A stretch of DNA of 64,000 nt from a virus. Its lineage: Duplodnaviria > Caudoviricetes. Below the pieces are notes generated by a model. The model made no database searches. It was not told the DNA's origin and saw nothing but the letters and a program-made list of their open reading frames with translations. The stretch lies in the IMG/VR virus record IMGVR_UViG_3300025608_000006, one strand, 5' to 3'. The stretch's first letter is position 1, and each line of letters starts with the position of its first letter. Of this stretch, positions 3,102 to 64,000 are shown piece after piece. The translations under genes and the position numbers were made by a program.

Positions 3102-3989
3102 ATGCCGATAGTAAACTCGCCATTTGAATCGCAGTATGGTTTTAAAGGACCGGGATTTTCTGTCGATTCTGAAGGTAACATTATTGCTGCATCTATTACT
3201 ACAGTAGATGAAGCTGATACAGATGAAGTTTTATTTGTAAATTTTACTGTTACTGATGCAGACAACGACTTTTTTATTGCAGAATTAGGTGAAGCACCAA
3301 ATCCTACTATTACAGTTTCTAGACAAGAAACATACAGTTTCAGTCTTGACATACCAGATTTAAAAATTCAAATTCTTACAGGCAATGAGCTTGAATCACT
3401 ACAGTACAACAGTGGCATAAGTCACTCTGACGGATCTCAAGGGGCTGATGCACAACTTAAAGTAGACGGTGTACTAAGATGGAGTGTTCCATTAAATGCT
3501 CCGGATACATTATATTATTCAGATGAACTTAGAAATAACATTGGAGTAATCAATGTTGTTGATCCTACTGGACTGTTTAGTACAATAGATGTTAACTCTA
3601 CAACTAACTCAACTAGTGCAACAACTGGTGCAATTACTGTAGCTGGCGGCGTTGGAATTGAAAAAGATTTACATGTAGCCGGCGAACTGAATTTATCCGG
3701 AGTAGGAATACCAAAACTAAGTTCATTAACCAATTTAGAACTAAATGCAGAAAACAAGATAATTCTTCAAGTTGCTGATATAAAACTTGGCGAATTAAAT
3801 TCTTCTGGATTAAGTATTACAATAAATAACAGCACTATAGACAATACGGCAATTGGAGGAACTGCTCCAGCAGCAGCAGCATTTACATCAGCAACAGTAA
3901 CACAGACACCTGTGACTAATACTAGTGTAACTAATCGGCAGTATGTGGATAGTACGGCACTATCATTAGCAATAGCATTTGGATTATAA
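3102..3989 (+). CDS. Tail-fibre/baseplate-associated structural protein with degenerate cupredoxin-like domain
   Basis: Late promoter at 3078 and AGGAG RBS. Contains GAITVAGGVGIEKDL and VTNRQYVD fibre-type motifs and a PTITVSRQETYSF...WSVPLNAPDTLYY segment. Confidence 0.6.
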   Translation: MPIVNSPFESQYGFKGPGFSVDSEGNIIAASITTVDEADTDEVLFVNFTVTDADNDFFIAELGEAPNPTITVSRQETYSFSLDIPDLKIQILTGNELESLQYNSGISHSDGSQGADAQLKVDGVLRWSVPLNAPDTLYYSDELRNNIGVINVVDPTGLFSTIDVNSTTNSTSATTGAITVAGGVGIEKDLHVAGELNLSGVGIPKLSSLTNLELNAENKIILQVADIKLGELNSSGLSITINNSTIDNTAIGGTAPAAAAFTSATVTQTPVTNTSVTNRQYVDSTALSLAIAFGL

Positions 3990-42284: not shown

Positions 42285-43119
42285 TTTATGGACACACAAC
42301 GGTGCGCTTAACAGTAGACCAGTTTTTGATGCCTTTGATAACAGTCTTGTGGATGCTGGGCATGATGTTCTTTATAATGATATTAGCGCTGACGTTAATG
42401 TTATTTGGAGTGTTCTTTGGAATGGTCGAATGGCTAGGAACGAAGCTGTATGGAATCAAGACAAGCCTACTATAGTATTAGAAGTAGGCGGAATCAAGAG
42501 GGGAACGACTTGGAAGGTAGGATTGAATGGTATTAATAGAGATGCTTACTTTGGCGATTATATGGGCCACGACAGTAGCCGTAGTGATTTACTTGAACTC
42601 AAAGTAAAGCCGTGGCGCACAGACGGCGAGTATATTCTAATATGCGGACAGCATGATAAAAGTTTGCAGTGGAAAAATATGCCACGCATGAGCAATTGGT
42701 TTCTTCAGACATACGACGAAATACGCAAGCACACAGACCGTCCTATTATATTCCGCCCACATCCACGTTGCAGACTGCCCCATATAGAACGCGGACTCAA
42801 ACACGTATACAGACAGGAACCACAACATGTTACTAACACTTATGACGACTTTGATATGGGCTTCAATAACGTTCATTGTACTATTAGCTATAGCAGTAAT
42901 CCTGGCATACATTCTGTTATGGCCGGTGTACCTAGTTTTGTTAGTACTCATAGTCTCGCTTATGATGTGGGCAATGACATTGACTTCTTGCACGACATTG
43001 AACAGCCAATTATGCCAGACAGAACAGAATGGCTCAACAACTACGCATACACTGAATACACAGTAGACGAAATTGCACAAGGCATTCCACTAAAACGATT
43101 GACAGATAAGTTAATTTAA
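42274..43119 (+). CDS. Putative GT-B / capsule-biosynthesis-like protein (paralog 3)
   Basis: ILICGQ, IFRPHP, ISYSSNPGIHSVMAGVP. Confidence 0.55.
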   Translation: MKFSLWTHNGALNSRPVFDAFDNSLVDAGHDVLYNDISADVNVIWSVLWNGRMARNEAVWNQDKPTIVLEVGGIKRGTTWKVGLNGINRDAYFGDYMGHDSSRSDLLELKVKPWRTDGEYILICGQHDKSLQWKNMPRMSNWFLQTYDEIRKHTDRPIIFRPHPRCRLPHIERGLKHVYRQEPQHVTNTYDDFDMGFNNVHCTISYSSNPGIHSVMAGVPSFVSTHSLAYDVGNDIDFLHDIEQPIMPDRTEWLNNYAYTEYTVDEIAQGIPLKRLTDKLI

Positions 43120-43127
43120 GTTATACT
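43099..43127 (+). promoter_or_regulatory. Sigma70-type promoter of the uvsW operon (probable leaderless mRNA)
   Basis: TTGACA-17 nt-TATACT-6 nt-ATG (43134). Confidence 0.75.
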
Positions 43128-43133
43128 ACATGT

Positions 43134-44306
43134 ATGATTATAAACTTAGAAGATTGCTTAGAGTATCTCACAGGCTTGCGCCAAGCACCTGTTGAATTCA
43201 CTGTCGAGAAAACTGATGCAACTATTATCAATAGTATTGCAAGACAAGTTTTTAAAGGCACAGCTTTAACTGACAGACAGTCTGCGCTTATGCATGAAAA
43301 ATTGCAAAAGTACAGAGATCAATTTATTAATTTAGATTGGGACTTTGATTATGCAGTTAATCAATTGCGTCAACCCTTGCGTCATATTGATCGCAGTAAA
43401 TATATCAAACTTGCGGACAACGAAATCAAAATAAGATTTCCTTTTAGAAAAACTGAGATAATGTTGGTGCAGGAAGTTGCAAACACGGCACAAGATAATT
43501 ATCGTCATGAAAAAGGATCACACACTCATTATTTTGAATGTAACGAAATCAATATATTAAATTTGTTAGACAGATTTAACAATAAAGAATTTGAAATAGA
43601 CAGAGAACTTGTAGAGTTGTACGACAATATAAAAACTGTTCATAATAATCCACAAGAATATTTGAGTGGATTTTTAGATAAGAATTTATTGAATGTTAAT
43701 CCTGCTCTAATGCCTGCTATTCAAAATGAACTTGGCGAACTGAATAACAATTCGTTAACACAATTCTTTGATCGCAGATTTAGATATGGATTTGATTTAA
43801 CAGATGTTATTCCTAATAATACACTTGCACAGAAAATTGCACATCGTAAAGATGCACAATATCAAAGCAAGCCCAGTGCAGAAACATCGAGCGAAGTACT
43901 AAATGCATTATGGAATCTAAACAGATTTCCTATGCTAGTAATTTTAGAAGAAAACAATGCAGAAGATCAGTTGTATGAGTTTGCAAACCATTACAGAGAT
44001 ATTTTAAATCCAGAAGAACAGAGTGTACTGTTTCGTTTAGAAGATAAAGATGCAGGCTTTAACCAATTGATTAAGGACAGAAAATTAAACAATTGGGTTG
44101 ACAACACTACAAAGATAGTGTATATTAATAAGAGTAAGTTACCAAAGTTGCTTGTAAACAATGAATGGAAGCCTAGTGCTGCATTTTGTTTTTCAAGTGC
44201 AATGGACCGTTATGTGAATAGTTATGTTTCATTTAACTGTGACTTAATTATATATAGAGAAGAACACATGAGTCCATTTAGGAGACATTCAAGATACTAT
44301 GGCTAG
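43134..44306 (+). CDS. Conserved hypothetical protein upstream of the helicase
   Basis: 390-aa ORF translationally coupled to uvsW. Confidence 0.7.
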   Translation: MIINLEDCLEYLTGLRQAPVEFTVEKTDATIINSIARQVFKGTALTDRQSALMHEKLQKYRDQFINLDWDFDYAVNQLRQPLRHIDRSKYIKLADNEIKIRFPFRKTEIMLVQEVANTAQDNYRHEKGSHTHYFECNEINILNLLDRFNNKEFEIDRELVELYDNIKTVHNNPQEYLSGFLDKNLLNVNPALMPAIQNELGELNNNSLTQFFDRRFRYGFDLTDVIPNNTLAQKIAHRKDAQYQSKPSAETSSEVLNALWNLNRFPMLVILEENNAEDQLYEFANHYRDILNPEEQSVLFRLEDKDAGFNQLIKDRKLNNWVDNTTKIVYINKSKLPKLLVNNEWKPSAAFCFSSAMDRYVNSYVSFNCDLIIYREEHMSPFRRHSRYYG

Positions 44307-51670: not shown

Positions 51671-51698
51671 TTGACAAATCCTATACTGATGCTATAAT
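51671..51698 (+). promoter_or_regulatory. Sigma70-type promoter of primase (probable leaderless mRNA)
   Basis: TTGACA-16 nt-TATAAT-6 nt-ATG (51705). Confidence 0.75.
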
Positions 51699-51704
51699 AG
51701 TAGT

Positions 51705-52685
51705 ATGAGTATTGTATCTGACACAATTACAGCACACTTGCCTTCAAAGCGAAAGACAACTCCTAGTGGGTGGACCAGCTTTAACGCACCCTGCTGTCAT
51801 CACAACGGCAACACTGCTGACACTAGAGGACGCGGCGGACTTATTAGTGAAGGTGATACAGTTAGCTATCATTGTTTTAACTGTGGATACAAAGCAAGCT
51901 GGCAACCAGGTAGACCGGTGTCTAACAAGCTACGTAAGCTTCTACAGTGGCTGAACTGTACAGATGATACAATAACACGGCTAACCTTTGACGTCATGCG
52001 CTTAAACGAAGGCGTTGAGGTAGCAGAGCGCAAGATAGAACTGCCCACATTTGAAACTGTACCACTGCCTCCAGATGCAATTAAAATTACTGATATTACT
52101 GATTTCAGCAAATTTAGTTTGTCTATATTAGAATACATGGCTGCACGTAATCTAAACTTAGATGATACTGATTACTATTGGAGTGCAAGTTTAGCATATC
52201 GTGATAGACTTATTATTCCGTTTTACTATGAAGGTAGAGTAGTAGGCTGGACAGCTAGAACTATCACAGCAGATAAAAAGCCCAAGTATCTTACAGAAAC
52301 ACAACCTGGCTTTGTGTACGGACTTGACGCACAAGGCTATGACAAAACGTTTGCTATTGTCTGTGAAGGGCAAGTAGATGCTATTCATGTAGACGGCTGT
52401 GCGCTCGGCGGCAGTGAAATTAATGATGCACAAGCGTTGCTGATCAACAAACTAAACAAAGACATTGTTGTAGTGCCCGACAGAGACAAAGCTGGTAGTA
52501 AACTTGTAGAACAAGCCATTGAACAGGGTTGGGGAGTTAGCTTACCAGAGTGGCCCCAAGATGTTAATGATATTGGCGATGCAGTAGATAAGTACGGAAG
52601 ACTATATACACTATACAGCATTGCTAGTGCTGCTGAAACTAGCCCACTTAAAATTAGATTGAGAGCAAAAAAATGGTTCATATGA
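51705..52685 (+). CDS. DNA primase
   Basis: Zn ribbon FNAPCC..YHCFNCG; TOPRIM VCEGQVDA, VPDRDKAG, DIGDA. Confidence 0.9.
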   Translation: MSIVSDTITAHLPSKRKTTPSGWTSFNAPCCHHNGNTADTRGRGGLISEGDTVSYHCFNCGYKASWQPGRPVSNKLRKLLQWLNCTDDTITRLTFDVMRLNEGVEVAERKIELPTFETVPLPPDAIKITDITDFSKFSLSILEYMAARNLNLDDTDYYWSASLAYRDRLIIPFYYEGRVVGWTARTITADKKPKYLTETQPGFVYGLDAQGYDKTFAIVCEGQVDAIHVDGCALGGSEINDAQALLINKLNKDIVVVPDRDKAGSKLVEQAIEQGWGVSLPEWPQDVNDIGDAVDKYGRLYTLYSIASAAETSPLKIRLRAKKWFI

Positions 52686-52810: not shown

Positions 52811-53793
52811 TTACTTGGGGAATAGTTGGCAATAGTCACGATGCCAGCATAGCCGTTTTTGATGACACAGTCAAAGGGTTAGGTATAAACCGTCCTACAC
52901 GACTCATATGGGCAGGTCTTGCAAAAGACTTCTCGGGAGTTCCTAATGACCCTGATCTCAATGATGCTATTGTAGAACACGCACTACAGTACGGCAAGCC
53001 TAACAAAGTTGTATGGTATGAACGTCCGTTCTTAAAGACACTGCGACAATGGCGTGCAGGACAGGGTTGGCTACGTAAAGAGAATGATATTAGAGCCTAT
53101 CTCAAACGTTGGAACATTGGGTGTAAGATAGAGTATACCCAGCATCATTTGAGTCATGCAGCCTACGCATACTACACCCAACCCTATGTAGACTGTGCTG
53201 TAATATGCTTAGACAGTATAGGAGAGTTCGAGACCCTAACTGTATGGCATGGTACAGAACGAGGCCTAAAGAAAATACACAGTCAAGGGTACCCACATAG
53301 TCTTGGATTATTCTATAGTGCTATGACACAACGTATGGGCCTACAAGCACAACGTGATGAATACTTAGTAGCCCAATGGGGTGCTAAAGGCGACCCACAT
53401 AGATTGTTTATGCCTATACTTGAAGAACTGGTAGAAACACGTGGCATGGGTAATGACCCTTATATACGCATGCGAGAGAACATGCACAGAGGCGTAAGCT
53501 GGTGGAGACCAGAGCTGACTACTGAACAGGACATGTATGATATTGCAGCAGCTACACAAAAAGTGTTTGAGTATTGCTTGCTTAACTTAGCAGCGTGGAC
53601 CAAAAGAAAGACAGGTTCTAAGAACTTAGCACTTGCAGGTGGAGGCGCACTTAACCGTCAAGCAGTTGCATTGTTAACCAATTGGAGCACAGTACACGTT
53701 CCCAAGAATCCAGGTGACCCGGGCAGTTGTATAGGAGCAGTATTAGCAAAGACCAAGGACAGAACAACACTTGACAACAAATGGCACAGGTAG
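52807..53793 (+). CDS. Carbamoyltransferase N-terminal (Kae1-like) domain only
   Basis: HDASIAV, HHLSHAA, LDSIGE, SLGLFYSA, AGGGALN, PGDPGSCIGA, then stop; no C-terminal YrdC-like domain. Confidence 0.8.
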   Translation: MITWGIVGNSHDASIAVFDDTVKGLGINRPTRLIWAGLAKDFSGVPNDPDLNDAIVEHALQYGKPNKVVWYERPFLKTLRQWRAGQGWLRKENDIRAYLKRWNIGCKIEYTQHHLSHAAYAYYTQPYVDCAVICLDSIGEFETLTVWHGTERGLKKIHSQGYPHSLGLFYSAMTQRMGLQAQRDEYLVAQWGAKGDPHRLFMPILEELVETRGMGNDPYIRMRENMHRGVSWWRPELTTEQDMYDIAAATQKVFEYCLLNLAAWTKRKTGSKNLALAGGGALNRQAVALLTNWSTVHVPKNPGDPGSCIGAVLAKTKDRTTLDNKWHR

Positions 53794-53799
53794 TATAAT
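53771..53799 (+). promoter_or_regulatory. Sigma70-type promoter of helicase (probable leaderless mRNA)
   Basis: TTGACA-17 nt-TATAAT-6 nt-ATG (53806). Confidence 0.75.
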
Positions 53800-53805
53800 A
53801 AACAC

Positions 53806-55227
53806 ATGAGCACAAGACAAAACACAGACTATGGGTATGATATACAAAAGGTATATCTTGAGATGATGATGAGCGATGCTGAGAGCTTTGTTCGTTGTCA
53901 AGCAGTATTTGACCCTCAAGCATTTGATAGACGCTTGCAGGAAGGTGCAAAGTTTCTCACAGACTATGTGACAGAACACAACGCACTGCCCACATTCGAC
54001 ATGATCAATGCTGCAACCAAAGCAGACCTCAAAGATCCTGGACAACTACAGGAGAATCACTATGATTGGCTGTTGAATGAGTTTGAAACATTCAGCAAGC
54101 ACAAAGCACTGGAAGCAGCTATTCTCAAGAGCGCAGATCTGCTGGAGAATGGTGATTATGGAGCGTGTGAGGATCTAGTCAAGAAAGCTGTGCAGATTGG
54201 TCTACAGAAAGACTTGGGCACAGACTACTGGGCTGATCCAAGAACACGTCTAGAAGGCATCAAGAGCACAAACGGACAGGTCAGCACTGGTTGGGCTGCT
54301 ATGGACAAGAAACTGTTTGGCGGATTCAACAGAGGCGAGCTGAATATCTTTGCAGGCGGCTCGGGTGCAGGCAAGAGTTTGTTCCTAGCCAACATCGGCG
54401 TTAACATGGCTGAGAAGGGCATGAACGTGATGTACTTGACACTGGAACTTGCAGAGAGCTTGGTTAGTATGAGAATTGACAGCATGGTCACAGGCATCAG
54501 CACACGTGATGTGTTCAAGAGCATTGATGATGTTGAGATCAAAGTCAAGATGATTGGCAAGAAGAGTGGTGCATTCCAAGTCAAGTACATGCCCTCAGGC
54601 AAGACTGCAAACGATGTGCGCAGCTATATCAAAGAGTATGAGATCAAAACAGGCAAGAAAGTAGATGTGCTGTTGATTGACTACTTGGATCTATTGATGC
54701 CAGCTGGTACAAAGGTGAGTGCAGAGAACCTGTTTATCAAAGACAAGTATGTGAGTGAAGAACTGCGTAACCTAGCAATGGAACTCAATACAGTGTTTGT
54801 TACAGCGGCACAGCTGAATCGTGGTGCTGTTGAAGAAATTGAATTTGATCACTCGCATATCTCAGGCGGTCTTAGTAAGATTCAAACAGCAGACAACGTG
54901 TTTGGTATCTTTACCAGCAGAGCAATGAGAGAACGTGGACGCTATCAACTACAGCTGATGAAAACACGTAATAGTAGCGGCGTAGGACAAAAGATTGATC
55001 TGGGCTTTGATCTAGACACACTGCGCATCATAGACTGTGACGAAGATGAAGATGACAACTACACATCAAGCGGTGCAAGCTCAGGCGCTAGTAGTATTGT
55101 AAACAACCTCAAACGCACCAACACAGCCAGCGAAGATCCCAGTGAAGGAGCAGCAGCACCCAAGATACGTGCTGAAACAGACAGCACCAAACTGCGAGCA
55201 TTCCTCAACAATCTTGGTGACGAATGA
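53806..55227 (+). CDS. Replicative DnaB-like helicase (T4 gp41-like)
   Basis: GGSGAGKS, LLIDYLDL, TAAQLNR, KTRNSSG. Confidence 0.9.
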   Translation: MSTRQNTDYGYDIQKVYLEMMMSDAESFVRCQAVFDPQAFDRRLQEGAKFLTDYVTEHNALPTFDMINAATKADLKDPGQLQENHYDWLLNEFETFSKHKALEAAILKSADLLENGDYGACEDLVKKAVQIGLQKDLGTDYWADPRTRLEGIKSTNGQVSTGWAAMDKKLFGGFNRGELNIFAGGSGAGKSLFLANIGVNMAEKGMNVMYLTLELAESLVSMRIDSMVTGISTRDVFKSIDDVEIKVKMIGKKSGAFQVKYMPSGKTANDVRSYIKEYEIKTGKKVDVLLIDYLDLLMPAGTKVSAENLFIKDKYVSEELRNLAMELNTVFVTAAQLNRGAVEEIEFDHSHISGGLSKIQTADNVFGIFTSRAMRERGRYQLQLMKTRNSSGVGQKIDLGFDLDTLRIIDCDEDEDDNYTSSGASSGASSIVNNLKRTNTASEDPSEGAAAPKIRAETDSTKLRAFLNNLGDE

Positions 55228-55865
55228 AGCTGTGGATATTTGGTGACAGTTATGCACAAGATCACGCGGATGCAACACAGTGGCAGCATCTACTGGCAGA
55301 TCATTATCAGTGCGATATAGAATTTGATGCAGCAGCAGGACGCAGCAATGAAAGAATACTATGGGGACTGCAACAAGCAGAGGATCGCATACAAGCACAG
55401 GACGCAGCAGTGGTGGTCACCACTGACTGCTTTCGACGATGGTTCTGGCAGGATTATCCTCAATACGCCAACTACTACAATTTAAAAGAAATCGATATGC
55501 CCAACACTGCTGCCAACTGGCATGCATTGGAACAGTACACACGCTATCTGGTGAACCCCACAGCAGACATCATCAACTATGAATGTCACCTGGCATGGCT
55601 GAACAGTCGAGATTACCGCACTGTGATTGTTCCCGGATTTAGAAATCTGCCCACAGAACAAGCACTCACTGAGTGTGTGAGCGAACAGGAATTCTTGGAC
55701 CATCAACATCGCACCATGTGGTATCGCAGAGGAGTAGACACTAGACTGAATCATATCAGCAGCTACAACCATGTGATACTAGCAGACAAAATACGCCAGG
55801 TGTTGGACGGCGAAGGTGAGTTGGATCTCACCACAGATTTTCAACAGAAGTTTCTCGCAGCCTAG
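55224..55865 (+). CDS. SGNH-like phage protein
   Basis: IFGDSY, AAAGRSNERI, LNHIS..NHVILA. Confidence 0.65.
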   Translation: MKLWIFGDSYAQDHADATQWQHLLADHYQCDIEFDAAAGRSNERILWGLQQAEDRIQAQDAAVVVTTDCFRRWFWQDYPQYANYYNLKEIDMPNTAANWHALEQYTRYLVNPTADIINYECHLAWLNSRDYRTVIVPGFRNLPTEQALTECVSEQEFLDHQHRTMWYRRGVDTRLNHISSYNHVILADKIRQVLDGEGELDLTTDFQQKFLAA

Positions 55866-56600
55866 ATCCGAAAGAGCGCGAAGCGCCCTGCGCCAGATTT
55901 TCCAAGAAGCCGCGAAGCGGTATGCGCTTTTTTAGATACTAGCGTATACCCAAAGCACCCAATACAAATGGTGTCTAGCAAGCTCACAGCAGCCCGTACA
56001 CACACGGTAATACTAACTGCGAGTCAACGTAAACCTAGTGTCCGAACACAGTGCTAACTGCGCAACTGTACAGTGCAAGTCTGACTCAAACACTAGTGAA
56101 TCTTCTGTTGGCTGAAAACACTTTATATTATTGTTGATGAACAGTTCTATTGACAGTGCATGCACTAGCGCATCAACAGCAACACTGTTGGTAATAGTAT
56201 GAAAGTTGAATTTGAGCGTGTGCTGTTGAGTGTTCATACAGTATTTACACAGTAGACTTACAGTGTGCTCACAGTAGTTGTACACTAGGAGTGAGGTTCG
56301 TTTAAGCTACACTAGGATGTACTGTGTACATACACGCTCGTTAGCACTCACGTGTGTGTTCGCTTCGCGAGTATAACAGTTGGAAAAGGGTTCTAGCAGA
56401 TTAAAAAAATTTCTGCGCAAAAAATTTTGAGATTGATTTCTATTGTGTGTGGAGGTTTTGCACACTAGCGAAAAAGGTTCTTGTAGAGTAGAAAATCTGC
56501 GCTGCGGTTTCATTAAGCATAGTACTTATAGTTTCAACCAGGTGATTTCTTAACCCCCACCCCCCGATGAAAAATTTTTTTTATTTTTTTTTATTTGACA
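55866..56600. other. Non-coding convergence zone with GCGAAGC mini-hairpins, ACTAG repeats and C/T/A homopolymer runs
   Basis: See findings; + strand genes end at 55865 and - strand genes end at 56663. Confidence 0.5.
56013..56236 (-). CDS. Possible small late ORF
   Basis: TAAATA-CTGT-ATG at 56236 (late-promoter/leaderless layout); 74 aa; coding status uncertain. Confidence 0.3.
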
Positions 56601-56633
56601 AAAAGAAAAAAGGAACAGTGCGAACACTGCTCC
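56600..56633 (-). terminator. Rho-independent terminator ending the early array
   Basis: Minus strand GGAGCAGUG-UUCG-CACUGUUCC followed by UUUUUUCUUUUU. Confidence 0.85.
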
Positions 56634-56662
56634 CTCTCTTCACTTCCATCCCGAGAAGTTAG

Positions 56663-57028
56663 TTAGTCTGCTCTACTGCCTGCGTAAGCTGTGAAGCCTG
56701 CTGCTGAGAACACCTTAGCTGCTGCGTATGCACCCTGCTCCTTGGTGTACATACACTGTGTGCCTAGCCCACTGGGGTTCCATATGCTGTATGCTCCTGA
56801 GTAGTCCTTCTCAAAGCCTGCTGCCTTCATACGCTTGCCCAGCTTGGTGTTGCCTTTGATGCCGTAGATGTTAACCCAAGCAAAGCCACAGTAGCCTAGC
56901 TCACCGTTAGCAGCAATGCTGGCTTCAGCTGCATCACGTGCATGCTGTAGTGCCGCAGCCTTAATAGTTTGCAGGTCCTCTACAGTGAGGTCGTTGAGTA
57001 CAGTAGTTGATGTGTTGATAGTAGTCAT
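56663..57028 (-). CDS. Early hypothetical protein (CGFAWV motif)
   Basis: Own promoter cassette; AAGGAG RBS. Confidence 0.8.
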   Translation of the reverse strand: MTTINTSTTVLNDLTVEDLQTIKAAALQHARDAAEASIAANGELGYCGFAWVNIYGIKGNTKLGKRMKAAGFEKDYSGAYSIWNPSGLGTQCMYTKEQGAYAAAKVFSAAGFTAYAGSRAD

Positions 57029-57090
57029 TTGCTATGCTCCTTAGCGTTAATGTATATACAGTATAGCACCTGTGTGCTGTGTGTCAACCT

Positions 57091-57363
57091 CTAATATTCG
57101 TATACAGTTGGCATTGTCAAGCCCTGGCCTGCACAGTAACGATCCAGTTCCTTGATCACTCTGCCATAGTAGTTGTACTTGTTCTGTGCTTGTGTAGCTG
57201 AGATCTCTCCATCGCAGTGTAGGTTCTCTGGGCTTAGGTCACTGTCTAGGCTACGTGCTAGATCGTTTACTTGTGTTTGGCTAAGTGGGAAGTTGATCTG
57301 CGGTGAGTTAAAGAAGCTACCCCAGGTGTTCTTCTGGTCGATGTATGCTTGTAAGTTTTTCAT
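57091..57363 (-). CDS. Early hypothetical protein (LSPENLHCDGE motif)
   Basis: Cassette promoter and GAGGGCAC RBS; stop abuts the next promoter. Confidence 0.8.
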   Translation of the reverse strand: MKNLQAYIDQKNTWGSFFNSPQINFPLSQTQVNDLARSLDSDLSPENLHCDGEISATQAQNKYNYYGRVIKELDRYCAGQGLTMPTVYEY

Positions 57364-57428
57364 AGTGTGCCCTCTTTGTTTAACTTATAATACTACTATA
57401 ACACCAGTTGTTGAGTTTGTCAACCGTT

Positions 57429-58214
57429 TTAGTAAGAAATTTTTGCCTCATCCAAGCGAGCAGTGATAGCATCGCCGAACTGCCAACCTTCTGGCATAGT
57501 GGTGCGCCATCCCAGCTCAGTGTCAAGACGCAGTGCATCCTTGGGATCGATATAAGCAATAGCAAGATTGTCTTTGAGCATCTCTGCAACTTGTTCTACA
57601 CTAGCTCCTGACTGAAACATTTCAACACTATGCTTGAACAGTAGATCACAAGGTACAATGTGCTCACGGTATGTGCGAACATCTGTAGGTTCATTAATAG
57701 TAATATACCGATCCACGCAGTCGAACAAGTGACGATGTAGCAATATTGTATTACCATGTTTAGTCACATCTTCAATAAACCTTGCTACGATTTCAAAGTA
57801 TGGTTTGCCAGCACTATCAAATTTCTTCCAACTGCTGGCACCAGCTGGATCCAACAAGTCACAGTCGCTGATCAATTCATACAGTGCAAGGAAGTCATCA
57901 TCTAGATTGTCGGTTTCGTAGCGCAGGTTCTTTTGTGAATCGTCTACAGCAAACCCATTATCAGTTAGGTACTCGACTACAATTGGGCGACTCTGATCAC
58001 CTTTGCCTCCTGGTAGTCCAACTCCAATCATCAATCGATTGCGAATGTAAAGAACTTCCAATACAACACCTGATTTAAGTGTTTGAGTATAGCAACGCTT
58101 GCCTTGACGGTCTTGTTTACCGCTACCTTCTACTCCTTCGATACTAAATCGGATACTGCTATCCTTTTGATTGATACGAGCGATAAAATCTTTGATACGT
58201 TCTTGAGGAGTCAT
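57429..58214 (-). CDS. Early hypothetical protein (261 aa)
   Basis: Start reassigned to ATG 58214 downstream of the cassette promoter; REHIVPC motif. Confidence 0.75.
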   Translation of the reverse strand: MTPQERIKDFIARINQKDSSIRFSIEGVEGSGKQDRQGKRCYTQTLKSGVVLEVLYIRNRLMIGVGLPGGKGDQSRPIVVEYLTDNGFAVDDSQKNLRYETDNLDDDFLALYELISDCDLLDPAGASSWKKFDSAGKPYFEIVARFIEDVTKHGNTILLHRHLFDCVDRYITINEPTDVRTYREHIVPCDLLFKHSVEMFQSGASVEQVAEMLKDNLAIAYIDPKDALRLDTELGWRTTMPEGWQFGDAITARLDEAKISY

Positions 58215-58282
58215 CTTGTTGCCCTTTGCCCTAACTGTTATATACAGTATAGCATCTATCTGCTGATTGTCAACCATTATTC

Positions 58283-58530
58283 AAAAGAAAAAGCCCGGAG
58301 CGTATTGGACGAGGGCACATCCTGCTCCGGGCTATCCTAAAGGTTATAGAGCGTGAGGGCATACGCTGTTCTATAACCTGTTACCGCACTGTTCTTGGTG
58401 ACAGCTTCGGCTTATTGCAGTCTAGGGACGAGGGCACATCCTTCGACTGTTTGAGCTAGCGCGAACGAGGGCACATTCGTTCTAGCTCAGGTTGGACTGC
58501 ACCGCAGGGTGCGCTACAGTCCTACAGTGT
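58283..58530 (-). ncRNA. Structured 3' RNA with four (R)UGCCCUC-loop hairpins and a terminator
   Basis: Four stem-loops with different stems and the same loop (+ coordinates 58311-18, 58355-62, 58430-37, 58467-74); last hairpin followed by UUUUCUUUU on the - strand. Confidence 0.75.
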
Positions 58531-58539
58531 TGCGGAGCT

Positions 58540-59541
58540 CTATGCTCGACGCATCACCGTATTCTCTGCCATCGCTTCCCACTTGTCGGGGAAAGCGCCA
58601 GCTAGGTCTGCTACCTTGAGCACTGTGCGCAGCGATAGCTCACGCAGCTTGCTCTTGTTGATCTCTACGAAATCCATGATCTCCGTCTTGACTTCTTCTG
58701 ACAGTTTACGGTCATCCAACATGCCATCTTGTACCACTTGCTTGATGCGCAGTACTTTGTCCTTGTCACTATCAATAGTCAAGTCCATGTAGTGACAGCG
58801 GCTCTCCAGTGCTTCCAAGTGCTCACGCAGCTTGCCTTTTACCTTATCGAACTTCAAGTTAGTGATAAAGATAGCACTAGCTTCGAACTTGAACTTGTCT
58901 GGCACACCTTCGTTGCGCAGCTTGAAGCTGTCAGTGTTCCAGTGGATCCAACGATTCTTCTTTGAGTCCAATGCTGCTTTCAAGATGTTCAAGCTTAGGT
59001 CATCTTGGAAGATGCTGTCACAGTCATCGAACACCACTACCTTGCCTTTGTCTGCCATGTTGAACAGTTTGCAGTAGAGTCCAATTGGGCTCATAGCGCC
59101 TTTGATAACTTCGTGTGTCTTGCCTGCACCTAGTGTTTCCATAGTTGCATAGCGATCCAGCACTTCTTCAACACCATGGCTCTTGCCCACGCCCGGAGGA
59201 CCTGAAACGATCATAGCGCGAACGTTTCCTTTCTTTACCGCTTTGGTCATGTCTTTGAGCATATCAAAACGTTCGCGGATGCGCTCTACAATCTCAGCGT
59301 CTGACTCCTCAGGCAAATCGTTCTTCTCTGCTTCACCGACCAACTCGTAGTCCTCCGGGCTGCTGCATTTGATCTTGATGTTGCGGTTGGGCAAGCCTGT
59401 CACAGGAGTTGCGTCAACTGTGACTGCGCCGCCGCTGGTTCCCATAGTAAACTCTTTGGCCATTGGGAATACAATACCGCTCATGTCTGTTTCTTTTCCA
59501 CGTAGTCTATAAGTACCATTTACAATCTTAATGTTCTGCAT
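58540..59541 (-). CDS. AAA+ ATPase
   Basis: SGPPGVGKS Walker A, VVFDDCD Walker B, FITN, ALESRC. Confidence 0.85.
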   Translation of the reverse strand: MQNIKIVNGTYRLRGKETDMSGIVFPMAKEFTMGTSGGAVTVDATPVTGLPNRNIKIKCSSPEDYELVGEAEKNDLPEESDAEIVERIRERFDMLKDMTKAVKKGNVRAMIVSGPPGVGKSHGVEEVLDRYATMETLGAGKTHEVIKGAMSPIGLYCKLFNMADKGKVVVFDDCDSIFQDDLSLNILKAALDSKKNRWIHWNTDSFKLRNEGVPDKFKFEASAIFITNLKFDKVKGKLREHLEALESRCHYMDLTIDSDKDKVLRIKQVVQDGMLDDRKLSEEVKTEIMDFVEINKSKLRELSLRTVLKVADLAGAFPDKWEAMAENTVMRRA

Positions 59542-59609
59542 GTGTTTGCCCTCATGTGTTTGTTTAACTTATATACAGTATAGCATCAATCTAACGTTTG
59601 TCAACCACT

Positions 59610-59786
59610 TTATGTAAATATTAGATAAAGAATTCCAAGTACTGCAATCACCACAGCAGGTGGTACCAGTGTGAAGATCAAGCTGTGAACACACTGTTCC
59701 CAAAAGCCCACGTACTCGTTGCAGTTGTGACACTGTGGAGCAAAGAAGTTCTTATCCATTTGATGACAGTTTGGACATACGCTCAT
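59610..59786 (-). CDS. 58-aa zinc-ribbon plus transmembrane peptide (not in ORF track)
   Basis: MSVCPNCHQ...QCHNCN...PPAVVIAVLGILYLIFT; AGGAG RBS. Confidence 0.65.
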   Translation of the reverse strand: MSVCPNCHQMDKNFFAPQCHNCNEYVGFWEQCVHSLIFTLVPPAVVIAVLGILYLIFT

Positions 59787-59787
59787 C

Positions 59788-59925
59788 TTATAATACTCCT
59801 ACAAAGGATGGTTGAAGGACAGCACCTGCCCACATAAGTCCTGCGCCAAGCCATATCAGTATTGCACTCAGCAAGCCTGTTTGCCACAGCACCAAAAGGA
59901 TTACTAGTTTGATCAGCGTTCCCAT
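59788..59925 (-). CDS. 45-aa membrane peptide
   Basis: MGTLIKLVILLVLWQTGLLSAILIWLGAG...; AAGGA RBS before ATG 59925. Confidence 0.6.
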   Translation of the reverse strand: MGTLIKLVILLVLWQTGLLSAILIWLGAGLMWAGAVLQPSFVGVL

Positions 59926-59926
59926 C

Positions 59927-60202
59927 TTAGCGATCCTTGCGATCAATAGTGATCGTTCCCTGCATCCATGATACAATCAACTCACGGTCTTCATCTGAGA
60001 AGTCTTTAGCAGTTGTACCAAACGTAGCGCCAAAGTGTGTGAGCGCATTGCCCACATGGCTTAGGTTGTTGAGTGTGCGCAAGCCATCTTCAGTCACAGG
60101 GCCAAGTCCGTGAATCTTACCGTACTCTTCTGAGTAGTTCATCATCTCACGTCCGATAGTAGCCAGTTGCTTCTGTTCAGTTGTTGCTTCGAAAAATGCC
60201 AT
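59927..60202 (-). CDS. Early hypothetical protein
   Basis: Cassette promoter and AAGGGCAA RBS. Confidence 0.75.
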   Translation of the reverse strand: MAFFEATTEQKQLATIGREMMNYSEEYGKIHGLGPVTEDGLRTLNNLSHVGNALTHFGATFGTTAKDFSDEDRELIVSWMQGTITIDRKDR

Positions 60203-60265
60203 TGTGTTTGCCCTTTATCTAATTGTTATATACAGTATAGCTTCACTTGCGGAGTTTGTCAACCC

Positions 60266-60313
60266 CTAATTTGGAAGTCCGCCATTCCAGTCATCACAGG
60301 GATCATCATACAT
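60266..60313 (-). CDS. Possible 15-aa micropeptide
   Basis: MYDDPCDDWNGGLPN; AGGAGG RBS, TAATG coupling, TAG inside the next promoter repeat. Confidence 0.45.
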   Translation of the reverse strand: MYDDPCDDWNGGLPN

Positions 60314-60531
60314 TATTCGTCCTCCTGTTCACGACCTTGTGCAAAGTCCAACAAGTCTGCTGCCAATGCTGCTGCTTGTGCGCGAGTCAACTGCACCCAG
60401 CTAAACGGGCCGCCTTCGCTCCAGCTGCCTACTTTGCTCTGTGTCAATTGCACACAAGTGCCTCGGTCGCTGCCTCCAAAGAAGCGTGTCATTGTTACGC
60501 CTTCTGCGTGTGTTTTCAATTCTGTTGACAT
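60313..60531 (-). CDS. Early hypothetical protein
   Basis: Cassette promoter and GAGGAGCAC RBS; FFGGSDRGTCVQLTQ. Confidence 0.75.
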   Translation of the reverse strand: MSTELKTHAEGVTMTRFFGGSDRGTCVQLTQSKVGSWSEGGPFSWVQLTRAQAAALAADLLDFAQGREQEDE

Positions 60532-60595
60532 CGTGTGCTCCTCTAATGTCTAACTTATACATACACTATAGCACCACTGTGCTAGTTTGTCAACC

Positions 60596-60667
60596 ACAAA
60601 AGTAGCAGGAGGAGTACTTTTTTTGATCGAGGGCACAATCAAATGTTCCTCTACTCCTGCTATTTGT
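60596..60667 (-). ncRNA. Fifth GUGCCCUC-loop hairpin in the tRNA-operon trailer
   Basis: Minus strand UUGAUU-GUGCCCUC-GAUCAA on top of a UAGCAGGAG/CUCCUGCUA stem. Confidence 0.7.
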
Positions 60668-60765
60668 CCGGGCTCTGGGGCAAGTCTATTAATAGTCCCC
60701 AGCGCCGACAGTCGCTATGTGATCTGTGCTTCACGGTTATTAGCACGAGCGCTGTCTACTCAGTT

Positions 60766-60842
60766 TGGCCTCCCCTGCAGGATTCGAACCTGCGACCCAC
60801 AGCTTAGAAGGCTGTTGCTCTATCCAGCTGAGCTAAGGAGAG
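60766..60842 (-). tRNA. tRNA-Arg(UCU)
   Basis: CTCTCCT acceptor, ACAGC-CTTCTAA-GCTGT anticodon arm, GGTTCGAATCC, encoded CCA. Confidence 0.95.
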
Positions 60843-60846
60843 TATA

Positions 60847-60923
60847 TGGTGGGCCCACCGAGACTCGAACTCGGAACCTACGGATTATGAGTCCGGTGCT
60901 CTAACCAATTGAGCTATAGGCCC
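60847..60923 (-). tRNA. tRNA with CAU anticodon, probably Ile2 (lysidine) rather than Met
   Basis: GGGCCTA acceptor, CTCATAA loop, GTTCGAGTC, CCA; the GGGCC start resembles bacterial Ile2. Confidence 0.85.
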
Positions 60924-60929
60924 TGTCTT

Positions 60930-61014
60930 TGGTGCTCCCTGTCGGACTTGAACCGACATGCCTTGCGGCGACAGATTTTAAGTCTGTTGTGTATACCTAT
61001 TCCACCAAGGGAGC
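60930..61014 (-). tRNA. tRNA-Leu(UAA)
   Basis: GCTCCCT acceptor, ACAGA-CTTAAAA-TCTGT, long variable arm, GGTTCAAGTCC, CCA. Confidence 0.95.
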
Positions 61015-61028
61015 GAATTCTGTTTTAC

Positions 61029-61187
61029 TTATGCCCCATCATCCATTTCTAATTCAAACTCTGAAGCCATATCTTCTTCAATAGCTTCAGCAAGTGCTTC
61101 ATACTTGGCTCGCAGTTCGCTTACCTGCCGCAGCGACAGCACACGATCCAAGTCTTTGATAACATCTTGTAGTGTAATATAATCCAT
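61029..61187 (-). CDS. 52-aa acidic protein (not in ORF track)
   Basis: MDYITLQDVIKDLDRV...ELEMDDGA; TAATG coupling. Confidence 0.6.
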   Translation of the reverse strand: MDYITLQDVIKDLDRVLSLRQVSELRAKYEALAEAIEEDMASEFELEMDDGA

Positions 61188-61384
61188 TACTGCACCCATA
61201 CGTGGTTGAATTTGGTTGGAAGGTTATCACAGCTGAAGATCTCATCTGTGTAGTTAACGACTTTGACGCACTCATTTGTTGCGTAGCTAACATGGACATC
61301 TGGCGCACTCAACGCTGAGTTCATTGCGTATCCTAGTCCTGCTAACATAGTCCCTGCAAACGCGATAGTAAAAACTGCTTTCAT
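61187..61384 (-). CDS. Early protein with N-terminal signal/TM segment
   Basis: Hydrophobic N-terminus, two Cys; cassette promoter. Confidence 0.75.
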   Translation of the reverse strand: MKAVFTIAFAGTMLAGLGYAMNSALSAPDVHVSYATNECVKVVNYTDEIFSCDNLPTKFNHVWVQ

Positions 61385-61458
61385 TGTCGTTGCCCTTTTG
61401 CTTAACTGTTATATACAGTATAGCGCCGAAACGCTATACTGTCAACACCTAATTTGCC

Positions 61459-61707
61459 TTATTCAGCAAAAACTTTTGCACGTGATCCTGTGATGTCACG
61501 AGCACTTACTGCATAGCGAGCCTTGCCCGTTGTAGCAGTGTCCACACGCACGTTCAATCCAGCAGCTCGCAAGTCGCTGATTCGTGCAGTTAGATTTTGG
61601 ATTCCGAAACGTGCCTTTGCATCAGCAGCAGTGATTGTCTTGCCAGTGCCACGCAGGTAAGTTTCAAGGAATGCAGTTTGGTTTGATTTAATAGTAGTAA
61701 AGCTCAT
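61459..61707 (-). CDS. Winged helix-turn-helix protein
   Basis: LETYLRGTGKTITAADAKARFGIQNLTARISDLRAAGLNV (HTH_39-like pattern). Confidence 0.75.
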   Translation of the reverse strand: MSFTTIKSNQTAFLETYLRGTGKTITAADAKARFGIQNLTARISDLRAAGLNVRVDTATTGKARYAVSARDITGSRAKVFAE

Positions 61708-61806
61708 AATATGTACCCTTTAGAAAGTTTAGTTTAAAGTTTGCCTATCAACACTTTTTGCTCCAGTGTCTATATAGTATAGCACCTTTGCGGGATATGT
61801 CAACCC

Positions 61807-62001
61807 CTAATTGAACATATCGTCCCAAGCATCTTCAGTGATGCCAGTCTTGATGAACTCACGCTCACCAGCTGTTAGTTGGGGGAATGCATCCTGTACC
61901 AACAGTTTGCCTTCAAAGTAGGCTTCAACCTGCTCGTAGGTTACGTCAAGATCCATGGTGTTCTCTTGGCCGTTGAATGGATTAGTACGTGTGATTTTCA
62001 T
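61807..62001 (-). CDS. Early hypothetical protein
   Basis: VQDAFPQLTAGEREFIKTGIT; cassette promoter. Confidence 0.8.
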   Translation of the reverse strand: MKITRTNPFNGQENTMDLDVTYEQVEAYFEGKLLVQDAFPQLTAGEREFIKTGITEDAWDDMFN

Positions 62002-62066
62002 AGTGTTTGCCCTTTTCCCTAACTGTTATATACAGTATAGCATCAATTGAGGATTTGTCAACCTCT

Positions 62067-62264
62067 TTATGCAGTTTTAGTGCCAGTCTTTAGATTATAT
62101 TCAAAGCGCAGACCGCCCAGTACATCACGACAGCGGATGTAATCATAGTAGCCTTGTGCCTTCATTGCTTGATGAACAGCCTTGCCATCCGCAGCGTTTG
62201 ATACAGTGTCTACCCACTGCTCTGCACCACCGTCTTTGATTCCGAATATTTTGTAGCTTCTCAT
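62067..62264 (-). CDS. Early hypothetical protein
   Basis: Cassette promoter with doubled AGGGCA. Confidence 0.75.
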   Translation of the reverse strand: MRSYKIFGIKDGGAEQWVDTVSNAADGKAVHQAMKAQGYYDYIRCRDVLGGLRFEYNLKTGTKTA

Positions 62265-62326
62265 CGTATTGCCCTTTGCCCTAACTGTTATATACAGTAT
62301 AGCACACTCTACGGATTTGTCAACCC

Positions 62327-62482
62327 CTAATTGTCACTAACAATAAATTCACGCTCTTCTGGCAGGTATGCTATCAGCACATCTTTGGGCACTCGTTGCA
62401 GCATCTCGTAGAGTGCAGTTGTGTCCCGATCTTCGAGGTCGTTCTCTATCTGGTGAATCACTTCGTCCCACAGGTCCATCAT
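62327..62482 (-). CDS. 51-aa protein (not in ORF track)
   Basis: MMDLWDEVIHQIENDL...FIVSDN; AAGGAG RBS; TAG inside the next promoter repeat. Confidence 0.65.
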   Translation of the reverse strand: MMDLWDEVIHQIENDLEDRDTTALYEMLQRVPKDVLIAYLPEEREFIVSDN

Positions 62483-62760
62483 AGCGCATACTCCTTATTG
62501 GATTTCAACTGCCACTTCTCTAACACAGGCAAGCCGTATTCATCTTCGTCCACAACCACATAGGCAACTGTCTTCTTGACTGTGCCATAACGGTAGCCAG
62601 TCATGCCAGCAACACCGCCACCACCTACCCATATCTTGTGCAGCGTGTCCTCATTGCAGTTGTTCAACGGATCATCGTTGACACTATACTCGAAGTAATT
62701 GCCTGTGTCCTTCTCAACGAAGCAACCTATTGGATCTTTGGTGTAGGTGTAGTATGCCAT
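62479..62760 (-). CDS. Early hypothetical protein
   Basis: RYGTVKKTVAYVVVDEDEYGLPVLEKW; cassette promoter. Confidence 0.8.
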   Translation of the reverse strand: MAYYTYTKDPIGCFVEKDTGNYFEYSVNDDPLNNCNEDTLHKIWVGGGGVAGMTGYRYGTVKKTVAYVVVDEDEYGLPVLEKWQLKSNKEYAL

Positions 62761-62859
62761 GTCTTGCCCTCATTGCCTAACTGTTATATACAGTATATGC
62801 TCTAATAGGGGATCTGTCAACCATTATTTGGAAAAAAGATCCCCTTTAGAATCAATAGC

Positions 62860-63426
62860 TTACAAGCCTGTGGGTGCTAGGTTTACTTCTTCGTCTTCAT
62901 CCTCTTCTTCTTCCATTTCCTCATACTCTGCAAGACGCTCGTCTAGAGCATATTCGTCCACAAGATACTCTGGGATCATGTTGCGAACAGTGTCTGAGGT
63001 TGCACCTGAATAGTCATAGTGGTCGTCAGCACCTTCTGAATCCCAGTAGCCAACGAAGCACATACCGCCTTCTTCGTAGTATGCTTCTAGGTATACGCCG
63101 TCCATGTCATCACAGAACGCTGAGTAAGCGTCAATGGGCGGGCTCCAAGCCGAATCAAACCAACCTGTGATCTCACTAGTGCCGTCACCGTTGTCTGTGA
63201 ACTCAAGACCTTCAGTATCAACATCCCACTTGGTCCCCCAGTTAGTGACACACCAGTCATACCAGTTAGGCCCGTCACTAGGAGCAGTTGTCCCTTCTAG
63301 TTCCTTAGGCATAGGAATCATTGCGTTCAACAAGCCGCTGCCTTCTTGATTAGCGTCTTCCCACAGTTCCTTGATAGTCTCTGTGGAACCTTTGATTGTG
63401 ATTGAGTTGTTGCACCAGTTAGGCAT
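62860..63426 (-). CDS. MPNWCxN-family (DUF1281/YubB-like ferredoxin-fold) protein
   Basis: MPNWCNN, WYDWCVTNWGTKWD, FDSAWSPP, YYEEGG. Confidence 0.75.
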   Translation of the reverse strand: MPNWCNNSITIKGSTETIKELWEDANQEGSGLLNAMIPMPKELEGTTAPSDGPNWYDWCVTNWGTKWDVDTEGLEFTDNGDGTSEITGWFDSAWSPPIDAYSAFCDDMDGVYLEAYYEEGGMCFVGYWDSEGADDHYDYSGATSDTVRNMIPEYLVDEYALDERLAEYEEMEEEEDEDEEVNLAPTGL

Positions 63427-63577
63427 AGTCAGTCTCCCCCATAAGTTCTGTATCTACAATATCGGAATGTTCAAACGAGTAATCACACTCGCTCATGATG
63501 TCCTGGATGTCAGCGTCCCTAAGGACCTCCAACGCCACTGTGACATAAACTGTCTTGGTGTTGTCAGCGCCTGCCAT
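63419..63577 (-). CDS. 52-aa acidic protein (not in ORF track)
   Basis: MAGADNTKTVYVTVALEV...GETDYA; GGAGG RBS; overlaps both neighbours. Confidence 0.6.
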   Translation of the reverse strand: MAGADNTKTVYVTVALEVLRDADIQDIMSECDYSFEHSDIVDTELMGETDYA

Positions 63578-63789
63578 TAGCAGTCCTCCCCAAATGCGTC
63601 ATACAGTTCTGTCAAGTAATCAACGTCTGGCTCATCGTCTTCGAAGAACCGCTCGCTCAACTCATTACAGTCAAGCATATCCTCAACGTCATCGTTGCTC
63701 ATATACTTGAGCGCCATAGTCAGCATGTCTTCTGCTGACACCATGCCGTTCTCAACCAACTCAAGTGCGATATCTCTGTAGTTTGTCAT
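63577..63789 (-). CDS. Early acidic hypothetical protein
   Basis: ATG 63789 after GAGGGCAT RBS and cassette promoter. Confidence 0.75.
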   Translation of the reverse strand: MTNYRDIALELVENGMVSAEDMLTMALKYMSNDDVEDMLDCNELSERFFEDDEPDVDYLTELYDAFGEDC

Positions 63790-63863
63790 TTGCAAATGCC
63801 CTCTGCTTTGTTTAACTTATATATACACTATAGCACCGAATGCGCTATGTGTCAACCTCTTTT

Positions 63864-64000
63864 TTAAGCTATAGCTTCTTCTTTTGTTTTGCGATGATAG
63901 AACGCTTCCAAGTCTACGCAGCCGTCTACTTCAAGACCTGCGAGCAGCTGGGTGCGTTCTTGTTCATCGAATGCTTGATGATATTCATCCGGAGTATATT
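63864..64000 (-). CDS. 3' end of a small early ORF (truncated by window edge)
   Basis: ...YTPDEYHQAFDEQERTQLLAGLEVDGCVDLEAFYHRKTKEEAIA-stop just above the 12th promoter. Confidence 0.55.
   Translation of the reverse strand, partial: YTPDEYHQAFDEQERTQLLAGLEVDGCVDLEAFYHRKTKEEAIA

Follow-up and report, generated by a model that had tools for sequence, protein, structure and literature searches.

A 64-kb stretch of DNA from an uncultured marine phage (IMG/VR record IMGVR_UViG_3300025608_000006; 64,000 nucleotides (nt), hereafter the window) carries a block of early genes in which the first cistrons share a private ribosome-binding box, (G)AGGGCA(A), and in which non-coding 3' regions display hairpin loops that are exactly complementary to this box. 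Because these loops match the motif exactly and thereby explain its conserved C and A, we favour, at a rough probability of 0.55, the reading that a multi-loop antisense RNA derived from a 3' untranslated region (3'UTR) masks the early ribosome-binding sites, and comparative sequence data suggest that such an RNA would probably switch off early protein synthesis as a class. From the statistics of the motif, its complementarity to the loops, the conservation of both, the display of the loops and their joint absence from one lineage, we infer that box and loops would pair in vivo, that the outcome would be repression, and when in infection this control would act.

The early block occupies the minus strand from ~55.9 kb to the end of the window and includes 12 cassettes, each with a sigma70-type promoter whose −10 element is mostly extended (TG), a ~25-nt leader and one to three small genes. 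AGGGCA lies 4–7 nt ahead of the ATG in nine of the 12 promoter-led first genes and is doubled in two leaders, as a preliminary description of the sequence had reported; the box sites given there are real, although their coordinates were one base low and the spacing was put at 4–6 nt. The variants described at the same time are also present, namely AAGGGUAC as the ribosome site of the gene encoding a winged helix-turn-helix (HTH) protein (ATG 61707) and GGAGCA before ATG 60531 and ATG 57028. AGGGCA precedes none of the six internal genes and none of 57 other genes (window genes of at least 100 codons, in which AGGGC was sought within 22 nt of the start), a distribution with a Fisher p of 1.8e-9; GGAG or AGGA is present in 23 of these 57. 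Internal genes have ordinary Shine–Dalgarno (SD) sequences, as originally stated (GGAGG for 63577, GGGAG for 63426, AGGAG for 62482 and 59786, and AGGAGG for 60313). Between 57 and 64 kb, AGGGCA occurs on the minus strand only in leaders; on the plus strand the complement of the box reads TGCCCT, with second copies at 58227–32 and 62277–82. The cassettes and their boxes are located as follows:

57060–63855, minus strand: 12 sigma70-type promoter–leader cassettes bearing boxes, TTGACA-N16/17-TATACT/TATAGT

57035–57040, minus strand: variant box GGAGCA ahead of ATG 57028 (−9.7 kcal/mol with the loop)

57368–57374, minus strand: GAGGGCA box, 4 nt ahead of ATG 57363; GAGGGCACA and the loop match perfectly over 9 nt (−18.3 kcal/mol)

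58220–58232, minus strand: doubled box AGGGCAAAGGGCA, 5 nt before ATG 58214

59547–59553, minus strand: GAGGGCA box ahead of the AAA-ATPase gene (ATG 59541)

60209–60214, minus strand: AGGGCA box ahead of ATG 60202

60534–60543, minus strand: variant box GAGGAGCACA (GGAGCA) ahead of ATG 60531; 9/9 loop bases paired with one bulged A

61391–61396, minus strand: AGGGCA box ahead of ATG 61384

61711–61719, minus strand: variant box AGGGUACAU of the winged-HTH gene (ATG 61707), predicted to form 9 bp with the loop, one of them G-U

62008–62013, minus strand: AGGGCA box ahead of ATG 62001, with an AGGGAA copy upstream

62270–62282, minus strand: doubled box AGGGCAAAGGGCA ahead of ATG 62264

62765–62771, minus strand: GAGGGCA box ahead of ATG 62760

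63797–63803, minus strand: GAGGGCA box, 7 nt before ATG 63789

Relatives of the phage were collected with the early AAA-ATPase (58540–59541), which yielded 51 IMG/VR loci and 80 metagenome loci at 45–95% identity; the metagenome scan returned only relatives of at least 63% identity and no intermediate clades. In a set of 305 non-identical leaders behind promoters, drawn from the window and from relatives with 63–95% ATPase identity, AGGG occurs within 22 nt of the ATG in 82%, AGGGC in 71% (218/305) and AGGGCA in 59%, whereas AGGGC precedes only 11 of 232 coupled (internal) starts (4.7%; p = 6e-62), 40% of which have GGAG or AGGA. In an alignment anchored on AGGG, G stands before the core in 80% of the leaders, and the three positions after it are C (86%), A (79%) and A (68%); elsewhere the leaders are simply rich in A, with C at ~15%, and these base frequencies give the clade consensus A-GAGGGCAA. 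The genome-wide enrichment that had been proposed as a check is seen in two large relatives, in which 19 of 24 (275-kb contig) and 16 of 17 (101-kb contig) GAGGGC-N3-9-ATG sites lie in a single early block, 11 kb long in the former. The proposal that the box marks one gene class is thus upheld in the window (9/12 versus 0/63), in the clade and on the contigs of relatives, and equal frequency at late or internal genes, which would have contradicted it, is not observed. The distance from the box to the ATG has a standard deviation of 2.1 nt, compared with 3.9 nt for the distance to the −10 hexamer. Because the −35/−10 spacers and leader flanks vary among the relatives while the box is held, selection on the box itself explains this pattern better than recent duplication, the artefact considered in the preliminary description. 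In the leaders of L017, L020, L074, L076 and L088, an extra GTAGGGCAAC box lies 8–13 nt past the −10 element, where the mRNA presumably begins, and a separate SD (GAGGGA or AAGGAG) is also present; a box that stands apart from the SD would therefore be kept for a reason besides ribosome pairing.

The sequence GCCCTC occurs only five times on the minus strand of the 64-kb window, and all five copies lie at hairpin tips in two non-coding early 3' regions:

58283–58540, minus strand: structured 3'UTR of the ATPase mRNA, 258 nt, with four hairpins whose loops read UGCCCU(C) or AUGCCCUC

58312–17, 58356–61, 58431–36 and 58468–73, minus strand: TGCCCT loop cores of the ATPase 3'UTR

60597–60761, minus strand: structured element behind tRNA-Leu/Met/Arg (z = −3.9), ending in a long stem and then a U-run

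The ATPase 3'UTR has a minimum free energy (MFE) of −111.8 kcal/mol (z = −8.0), and its last hairpin is nested in a terminator stem that is followed by a U-run. In the element behind the tRNAs, the terminal stem is topped by an apical UGCCCU hairpin (60630–35). The loop sequences, (A)UGUGCCCUC(G) or AUGCCCUC, are complementary to GAGGGCA(CA). A cmscan search of 55800–64000 against Rfam (E ≤ 1) returned only tRNAs and chance matches, and no family fits these elements.

Hairpins of this kind recur in nearly all of the relatives. Each of 32 distinct ATPase 3'UTRs has two to five of them, 84 of the 100 GCCCU cores in these sequences lie in hairpin loops of the MFE structure, and the probability that GCCCU is unpaired is 0.88 versus 0.37 elsewhere. 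The stems vary freely, with 24 distinct arms, and reach at least 5 bp in 60% of cases versus 10.6% of random control positions. An MFE-fold GCCCU loop was found in 71 of 75 further metagenome loci, where no other loop 5-mer is nearly as common as GCCCU; the remaining four are L099, in which the motif is present and misfolded, and three loci of the L124 lineage. In L008 an unrelated insert of at least 400 bp follows the ATPase gene and displaces the hairpin array, which the near-identical L007 keeps. L099 and L008 are only apparent exceptions, artefacts of a misfold and of an insertion, respectively. The second loop site, behind the tRNAs, was found again in L076. Because of variable loop sizes and of stems misaligned by MAFFT, RNAalifold found no consensus among 15 terminal hairpins, and each sequence was folded separately instead.

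Predicted duplexes with the loop are strongest in first genes (mean −13.0 kcal/mol), intermediate in internal genes (−8.5 kcal/mol) and weakest in other genes (−4.6 kcal/mol), and only 4% of random 25-mers reach −10 kcal/mol; with the 16S anti-SD, by comparison, the first-gene leaders average only −6.1 kcal/mol. All 12 window leaders are predicted to form at least 6 bp with the loop. It had been suggested that leaders with GGAGCA or AGGGUA would partly escape control; however, the HTH variant AAGGGUACAU forms 9 bp with AUGUGCCCU, including one G-U pair (−13.9 kcal/mol), and GAGG-A-GCACA pairs all nine loop bases around one bulged A (−14.5 kcal/mol), both of which exceed the loop duplex of AAGGGCAA leaders (−10.6 kcal/mol). 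Since their extended complementarity to the loop is kept, these variants probably do not escape.

Box and loops are also absent together. In a quick maximum-likelihood tree of 103 ATPases (IQ-TREE with SH-aLRT support), the lineage of L124, L129 and L130 is nested well inside the clade, and in this lineage none of 31 leaders has AGGGC (AAGAGA or AGAGAG is found instead), no GCCCU loop array is present, and GCCCU sits in the stems of UUCG terminators. The 45%-identity outgroup has AGGAG and lacks the loops. This co-absence is suggestive of pairing, not decisive. The system in the L124 lineage has either degenerated or been re-coded. Predicted duplexes of its leaders are −9.3 kcal/mol with their own CU-rich 3'UTR, −7.8 kcal/mol with typical loops and −6.6 kcal/mol with shuffled loops, and compensation is weak and one-directional. 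Every cassette of the lineage has an AAGGGCC-UUCG-GGCCCUU terminator, and its ATPase 3'UTR contains CCCUCUCUC and CUCCCUCCC stretches. A terminator hairpin stands ahead of every cassette in that lineage and ahead of only some in the window; a simple terminator scan overlooks compound terminators. The ATPase homologues of cultured phages (Aeromonas phiA8-29, Vibrio VAP7 and Cronobacter LPCS28) give no independent test, because the spacers downstream of them are short, the SDs ordinary and the loop array absent.

Several observations weigh against an antisense RNA as the reader of the box. Most leaders pair with the loop over only 6–7 bp, and a genome-specific duplex test beyond the core was not significant (−13.93 kcal/mol within versus −13.81 kcal/mol between genomes; p = 0.057). 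Clean compensatory changes are lacking because both cores are invariant across the clade, and the co-absence of box and loops comes from one lineage and the outgroup. In L035–L047 (45% ATPase identity), a tandem CAGGCAAAC leader box lies upstream of the canonical AGGAG of the ATPase gene, and no loops complementary to it were found in these loci; a related box can therefore exist without a loop RNA. Furthermore, regulator and targets are both early transcripts, which makes the direction and stoichiometry of control ambiguous. Contigs from four marine metatranscriptome runs, which are uninformative where uncovered and from which transcript ends, strand and level cannot be read, have a higher k-mer depth in the exact-match hairpin piece than in ATPase coding pieces (33 versus 2.5–10.5 in X21 and 14.9 versus 5 in X22). 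This is a weak hint that the hairpin RNA accumulates, and the depth of contigs from RNA libraries can be inflated by DNA carry-over or by relatives.

Under the antisense RNA reading, the early promoters would fire and produce transcripts in which (G)AGGGCA(A) serves as the ribosome-binding box of the ~25-nt leader. Its GAGG/AGGG core would act as a weak SD for the host ribosome, and the whole box of 6–9 nt would be the target of phage RNAs contained in the early transcripts themselves. These RNAs would derive from the four-hairpin 3'UTR of the ATPase mRNA and from the hairpin behind the tRNA cluster, both of which may be stable and protected by terminators. As the stable 3' fragments build up, their loops would pair with the leaders far more tightly than the 30S subunit can, displacing it and perhaps attracting RNase. 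In every early unit the first cistron would be shut down and the coupled downstream cistrons would follow, while internal, leaderless and late genes, which have AGGAG, TAAATA boxes or no leader, would not be addressed. The ATPase mRNA, whose 5' end carries the box and whose 3' end carries the loops, could fold back on itself as the icaR mRNA does.

That the box is instead read by a protein, such as a RegA-like repressor, a RegB-like endoribonuclease directed at early SD regions or a host factor, with the loops acting as 3' stabilisers or decoys, appears unlikely. This reading has a precedent in phage T4, in which RegB cuts GGAG and RegA covers ~30 initiation regions (PMC3014915, PMC1702504), and the present phage has T4-like late-promoter boxes. 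Pfam searches of 17 early window proteins hit only a winged HTH, an AAA domain and DUF1281_C and revealed no RNA-binding family, and with most early proteins lacking a known family, a novel RNA-binding protein could be among them; the leader box without loops in the distant group would also fit such a reader. However, domains of RegA, RegB or CsrA type were found neither among the early window proteins nor on the contigs of four relatives. Of the two readers proposed in the preliminary description, a loop RNA or a RegA/CsrA-like protein, it is the RNA that is supported, being conserved and having exactly complementary loops. In these four contigs, which are 27–77% complete, CsrA (PF02599) was absent in a search whose positive controls worked, RegB (PF10715) was absent in a search in which no control genome matched either, and RegA was absent in a search without a positive control; because the contigs are incomplete, a novel protein could have been missed. 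The box also lacks the GGA that RegB and CsrA require (PMC1702504). GAGGGCA accordingly does not resemble a RegB/S1 target, in which GGA is followed by A-rich sequence, nor a CsrA/RsmA site, since on the transcribed strand the hairpin loops carry the complement of the box and not the box. A protein reader would, in addition, leave the exact and conserved complementarity of the loops unexplained.

We consider it still less probable that the box works purely in cis and has no trans-acting reader, being an SD of moderate strength (GAGG) within an A/C-rich leader free of structure, tuned so that unmodified host ribosomes translate at once, and owing its uniformity to a promoter–leader cassette evolving as a unit. 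The AGGG core ends 4–9 nt before the ATG in 239 of 251 leaders, a spacing typical of an SD, the leaders are predicted to be mostly unstructured, and the whole cassette recurs at small variable open reading frames (ORFs) as in the PeSL cassettes of T4-type phages (PMC2839356, PMC4122927). The match to the ribosome is only partial. GAGG in the clade, or AGGG with a G-U pair in the window, makes four pairs with the anti-SD, and the mean predicted anti-SD duplex is −6.1 kcal/mol for first genes and −8.7 kcal/mol for internal genes; the host anti-SD must be canonical, given the AGGAG of internal and late genes in this phage. Neither the conserved C (86%) nor the conserved A (79%) pairs with 16S rRNA, as had been noted from the window sequence alone, and the two add nothing to ribosome pairing. 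Nor would such an element account for the retention of G-AGGG-C-A in 305 leaders across 63–95% ATPase identity while flanks and −35/−10 spacers vary, for AGGGCAA copies at the leader 5' end apart from the SD, or for the conserved complementary loops and their loss together with the box in one lineage.

It is highly improbable that GAGGGCA is a duplex-DNA operator bound by a phage repressor in both orientations in leaders and hairpin regions, for although this 7-mer is confined to the early block, where it is present on both strands, and this block encodes a winged-HTH protein, the leader copies share a single orientation and keep their distance to the ATG and not to the promoter, the reverse copies always tip inverted repeats with co-varying arms that a duplex-DNA site would not need, and a palindrome at the −10 element and transcription start site is the better operator candidate. 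This palindrome is the inverted repeat ACTGT-N5-ACAGT (TACTGTATATAACAGTTA), which overlaps the −10 element and start site on the minus strand at 58232–58249, 60220–60237, 61403–61420, 62020–62037, 62282–62299 and 62778–62795. It is exact in five cassettes, has one to three mismatches in two more and is absent from the cassette of the HTH gene itself, and it is a candidate operator for early shut-off.

Silencing by the c4 RNA extends to genes behind the first cistron (icd/ant polarity). In the immI region of P1/P7, this antisense RNA is cut from a longer operon transcript and its loops pair with the ribosome-binding region of the first cistron (PMC12197685). The RNA proposed here would likewise be a phage RNA from an operon transcript with loops directed at a first-cistron ribosome site. 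However, c4 recognises a bipartite, unique sequence and controls a single operon in temperate phages, whereas here the box is common to at least 12 leaders, two to five identical loops are found in a giant phage of virulent type, and the Rfam C4 covariance model has no match. The cuckoo RNAs of Alphaproteobacteria (CcsR/RSs0680/ar14) have two to four adjacent hairpins with the same C-rich, anti-SD-like loop and highly variable stems (PMC4615179), an architecture shared by the ATPase 3'UTR and by its relatives with their two to five hairpins and 24 distinct stem arms. Their loop motif is CCUCCUCCC, in contrast to the (U)GCCCUC found here without an Rfam match, and they are chromosomal stand-alone small RNA (sRNA) genes acting on ordinary SDs, whereas the present targets carry a private box.

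In the UCCC-loop sRNAs (RsaE, RNAIII and LhrC), unpaired C-rich motifs bind SDs and block formation of the initiation complex (PMC2790875), and in icaR a UCCCCUG motif in the 3'UTR pairs with the SD of its own mRNA and makes an RNase III site (PMC3868564), an arrangement resembling the ATPase mRNA with its box and loops at opposite ends. These examples come from Gram-positive hosts and involve neither a temporal gene class nor a dedicated ribosome-site variant. RegB and RegA of T4 also shut off an early class post-transcriptionally through the translation initiation region (PMC3014915, PMC1702504), but the readers are proteins, RegB needs a GGA that GAGGGCA does not contain, and no homologues were found here. 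The PeSL cassettes combine an early promoter with a stem-loop as modules of recombination and shuffling (PMC2839356, PMC4122927) and resemble the reiterated early-promoter cassettes ahead of small variable ORFs in the window, although their description includes no private ribosome-site box or complementary RNA. Because the loop motif differs, no covariance model matches and protein homologues are lacking, the present system is not a member of the c4, cuckoo, UCCC-loop or RegB/RegA families and probably not of the PeSL family. By analogy, its principle appears akin to that of the known c4, cuckoo and UCCC-loop RNAs, and the private, class-wide box is what would set it apart.

The window also encodes a terminase, a tail tube protein, a DnaB-like helicase and other helicases, together with three tRNAs (Leu/Met/Arg). 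INPHARED contains no close relative of the window, only the tRNAs giving matches; the phage is found in marine and estuarine metagenomes. The G+C content rises near position 52000, from ~38% in the structural and replication genes to ~45% in the helicase region and early block. Within the early block, a GGGGATC past a stop codon at 62800–62860 (minus strand) is complementary to GATCCCC in the −35/−10 spacer of the next promoter, and a long-range hairpin between them would therefore span the −35 box. On the plus strand, sigma70-type promoters at 43099–43136, 51671–51707 and 53771–53808 have an ATG exactly 6 nt past the −10 element; the genes behind them encode a 390-aa protein, a 326-aa protein and the DnaB-like helicase. 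These replication genes are candidates for leaderless mRNAs, which would form a third class of translation initiation. Many plus-strand genes have TAAATA(C) boxes 6–15 nt ahead of the ATG or TAGGAGA SDs (examples are the starts at 3102, 18424 (minus strand), 22296, 23044, 28357 and 29957). The TAAATA(C) boxes resemble the T4 late promoter TATAAATA, and several leave almost no leader.

It is possible, though we advance it tentatively, that marine giant phages of one widespread lineage make the change from early to middle expression translationally, by means of an RNA. Their early leaders would carry a private GAGGGCA code with a weak affinity for ribosomes and a strong one for a multi-loop RNA released from early 3'UTRs, which would serve as a self-timed, class-wide off-switch. 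If so, an RNA would take over in these phages the role played in T4 by the RegA and RegB proteins. Should the pairing be real, a virulent phage would address a whole temporal gene class via a private ribosome site read by its own RNA, a compact translational timer of a kind that has not been described in lytic phages. Searches of uncultured phages for such switches could then follow a simple rule, namely a conserved C-rich loop complementary to a leader box, and the box and loops would offer synthetic biology a natural orthogonal pair of ribosome site and antisense RNA. Early 3'UTRs and the trailers of tRNA clusters in phages could, on this view, be regulatory RNAs.

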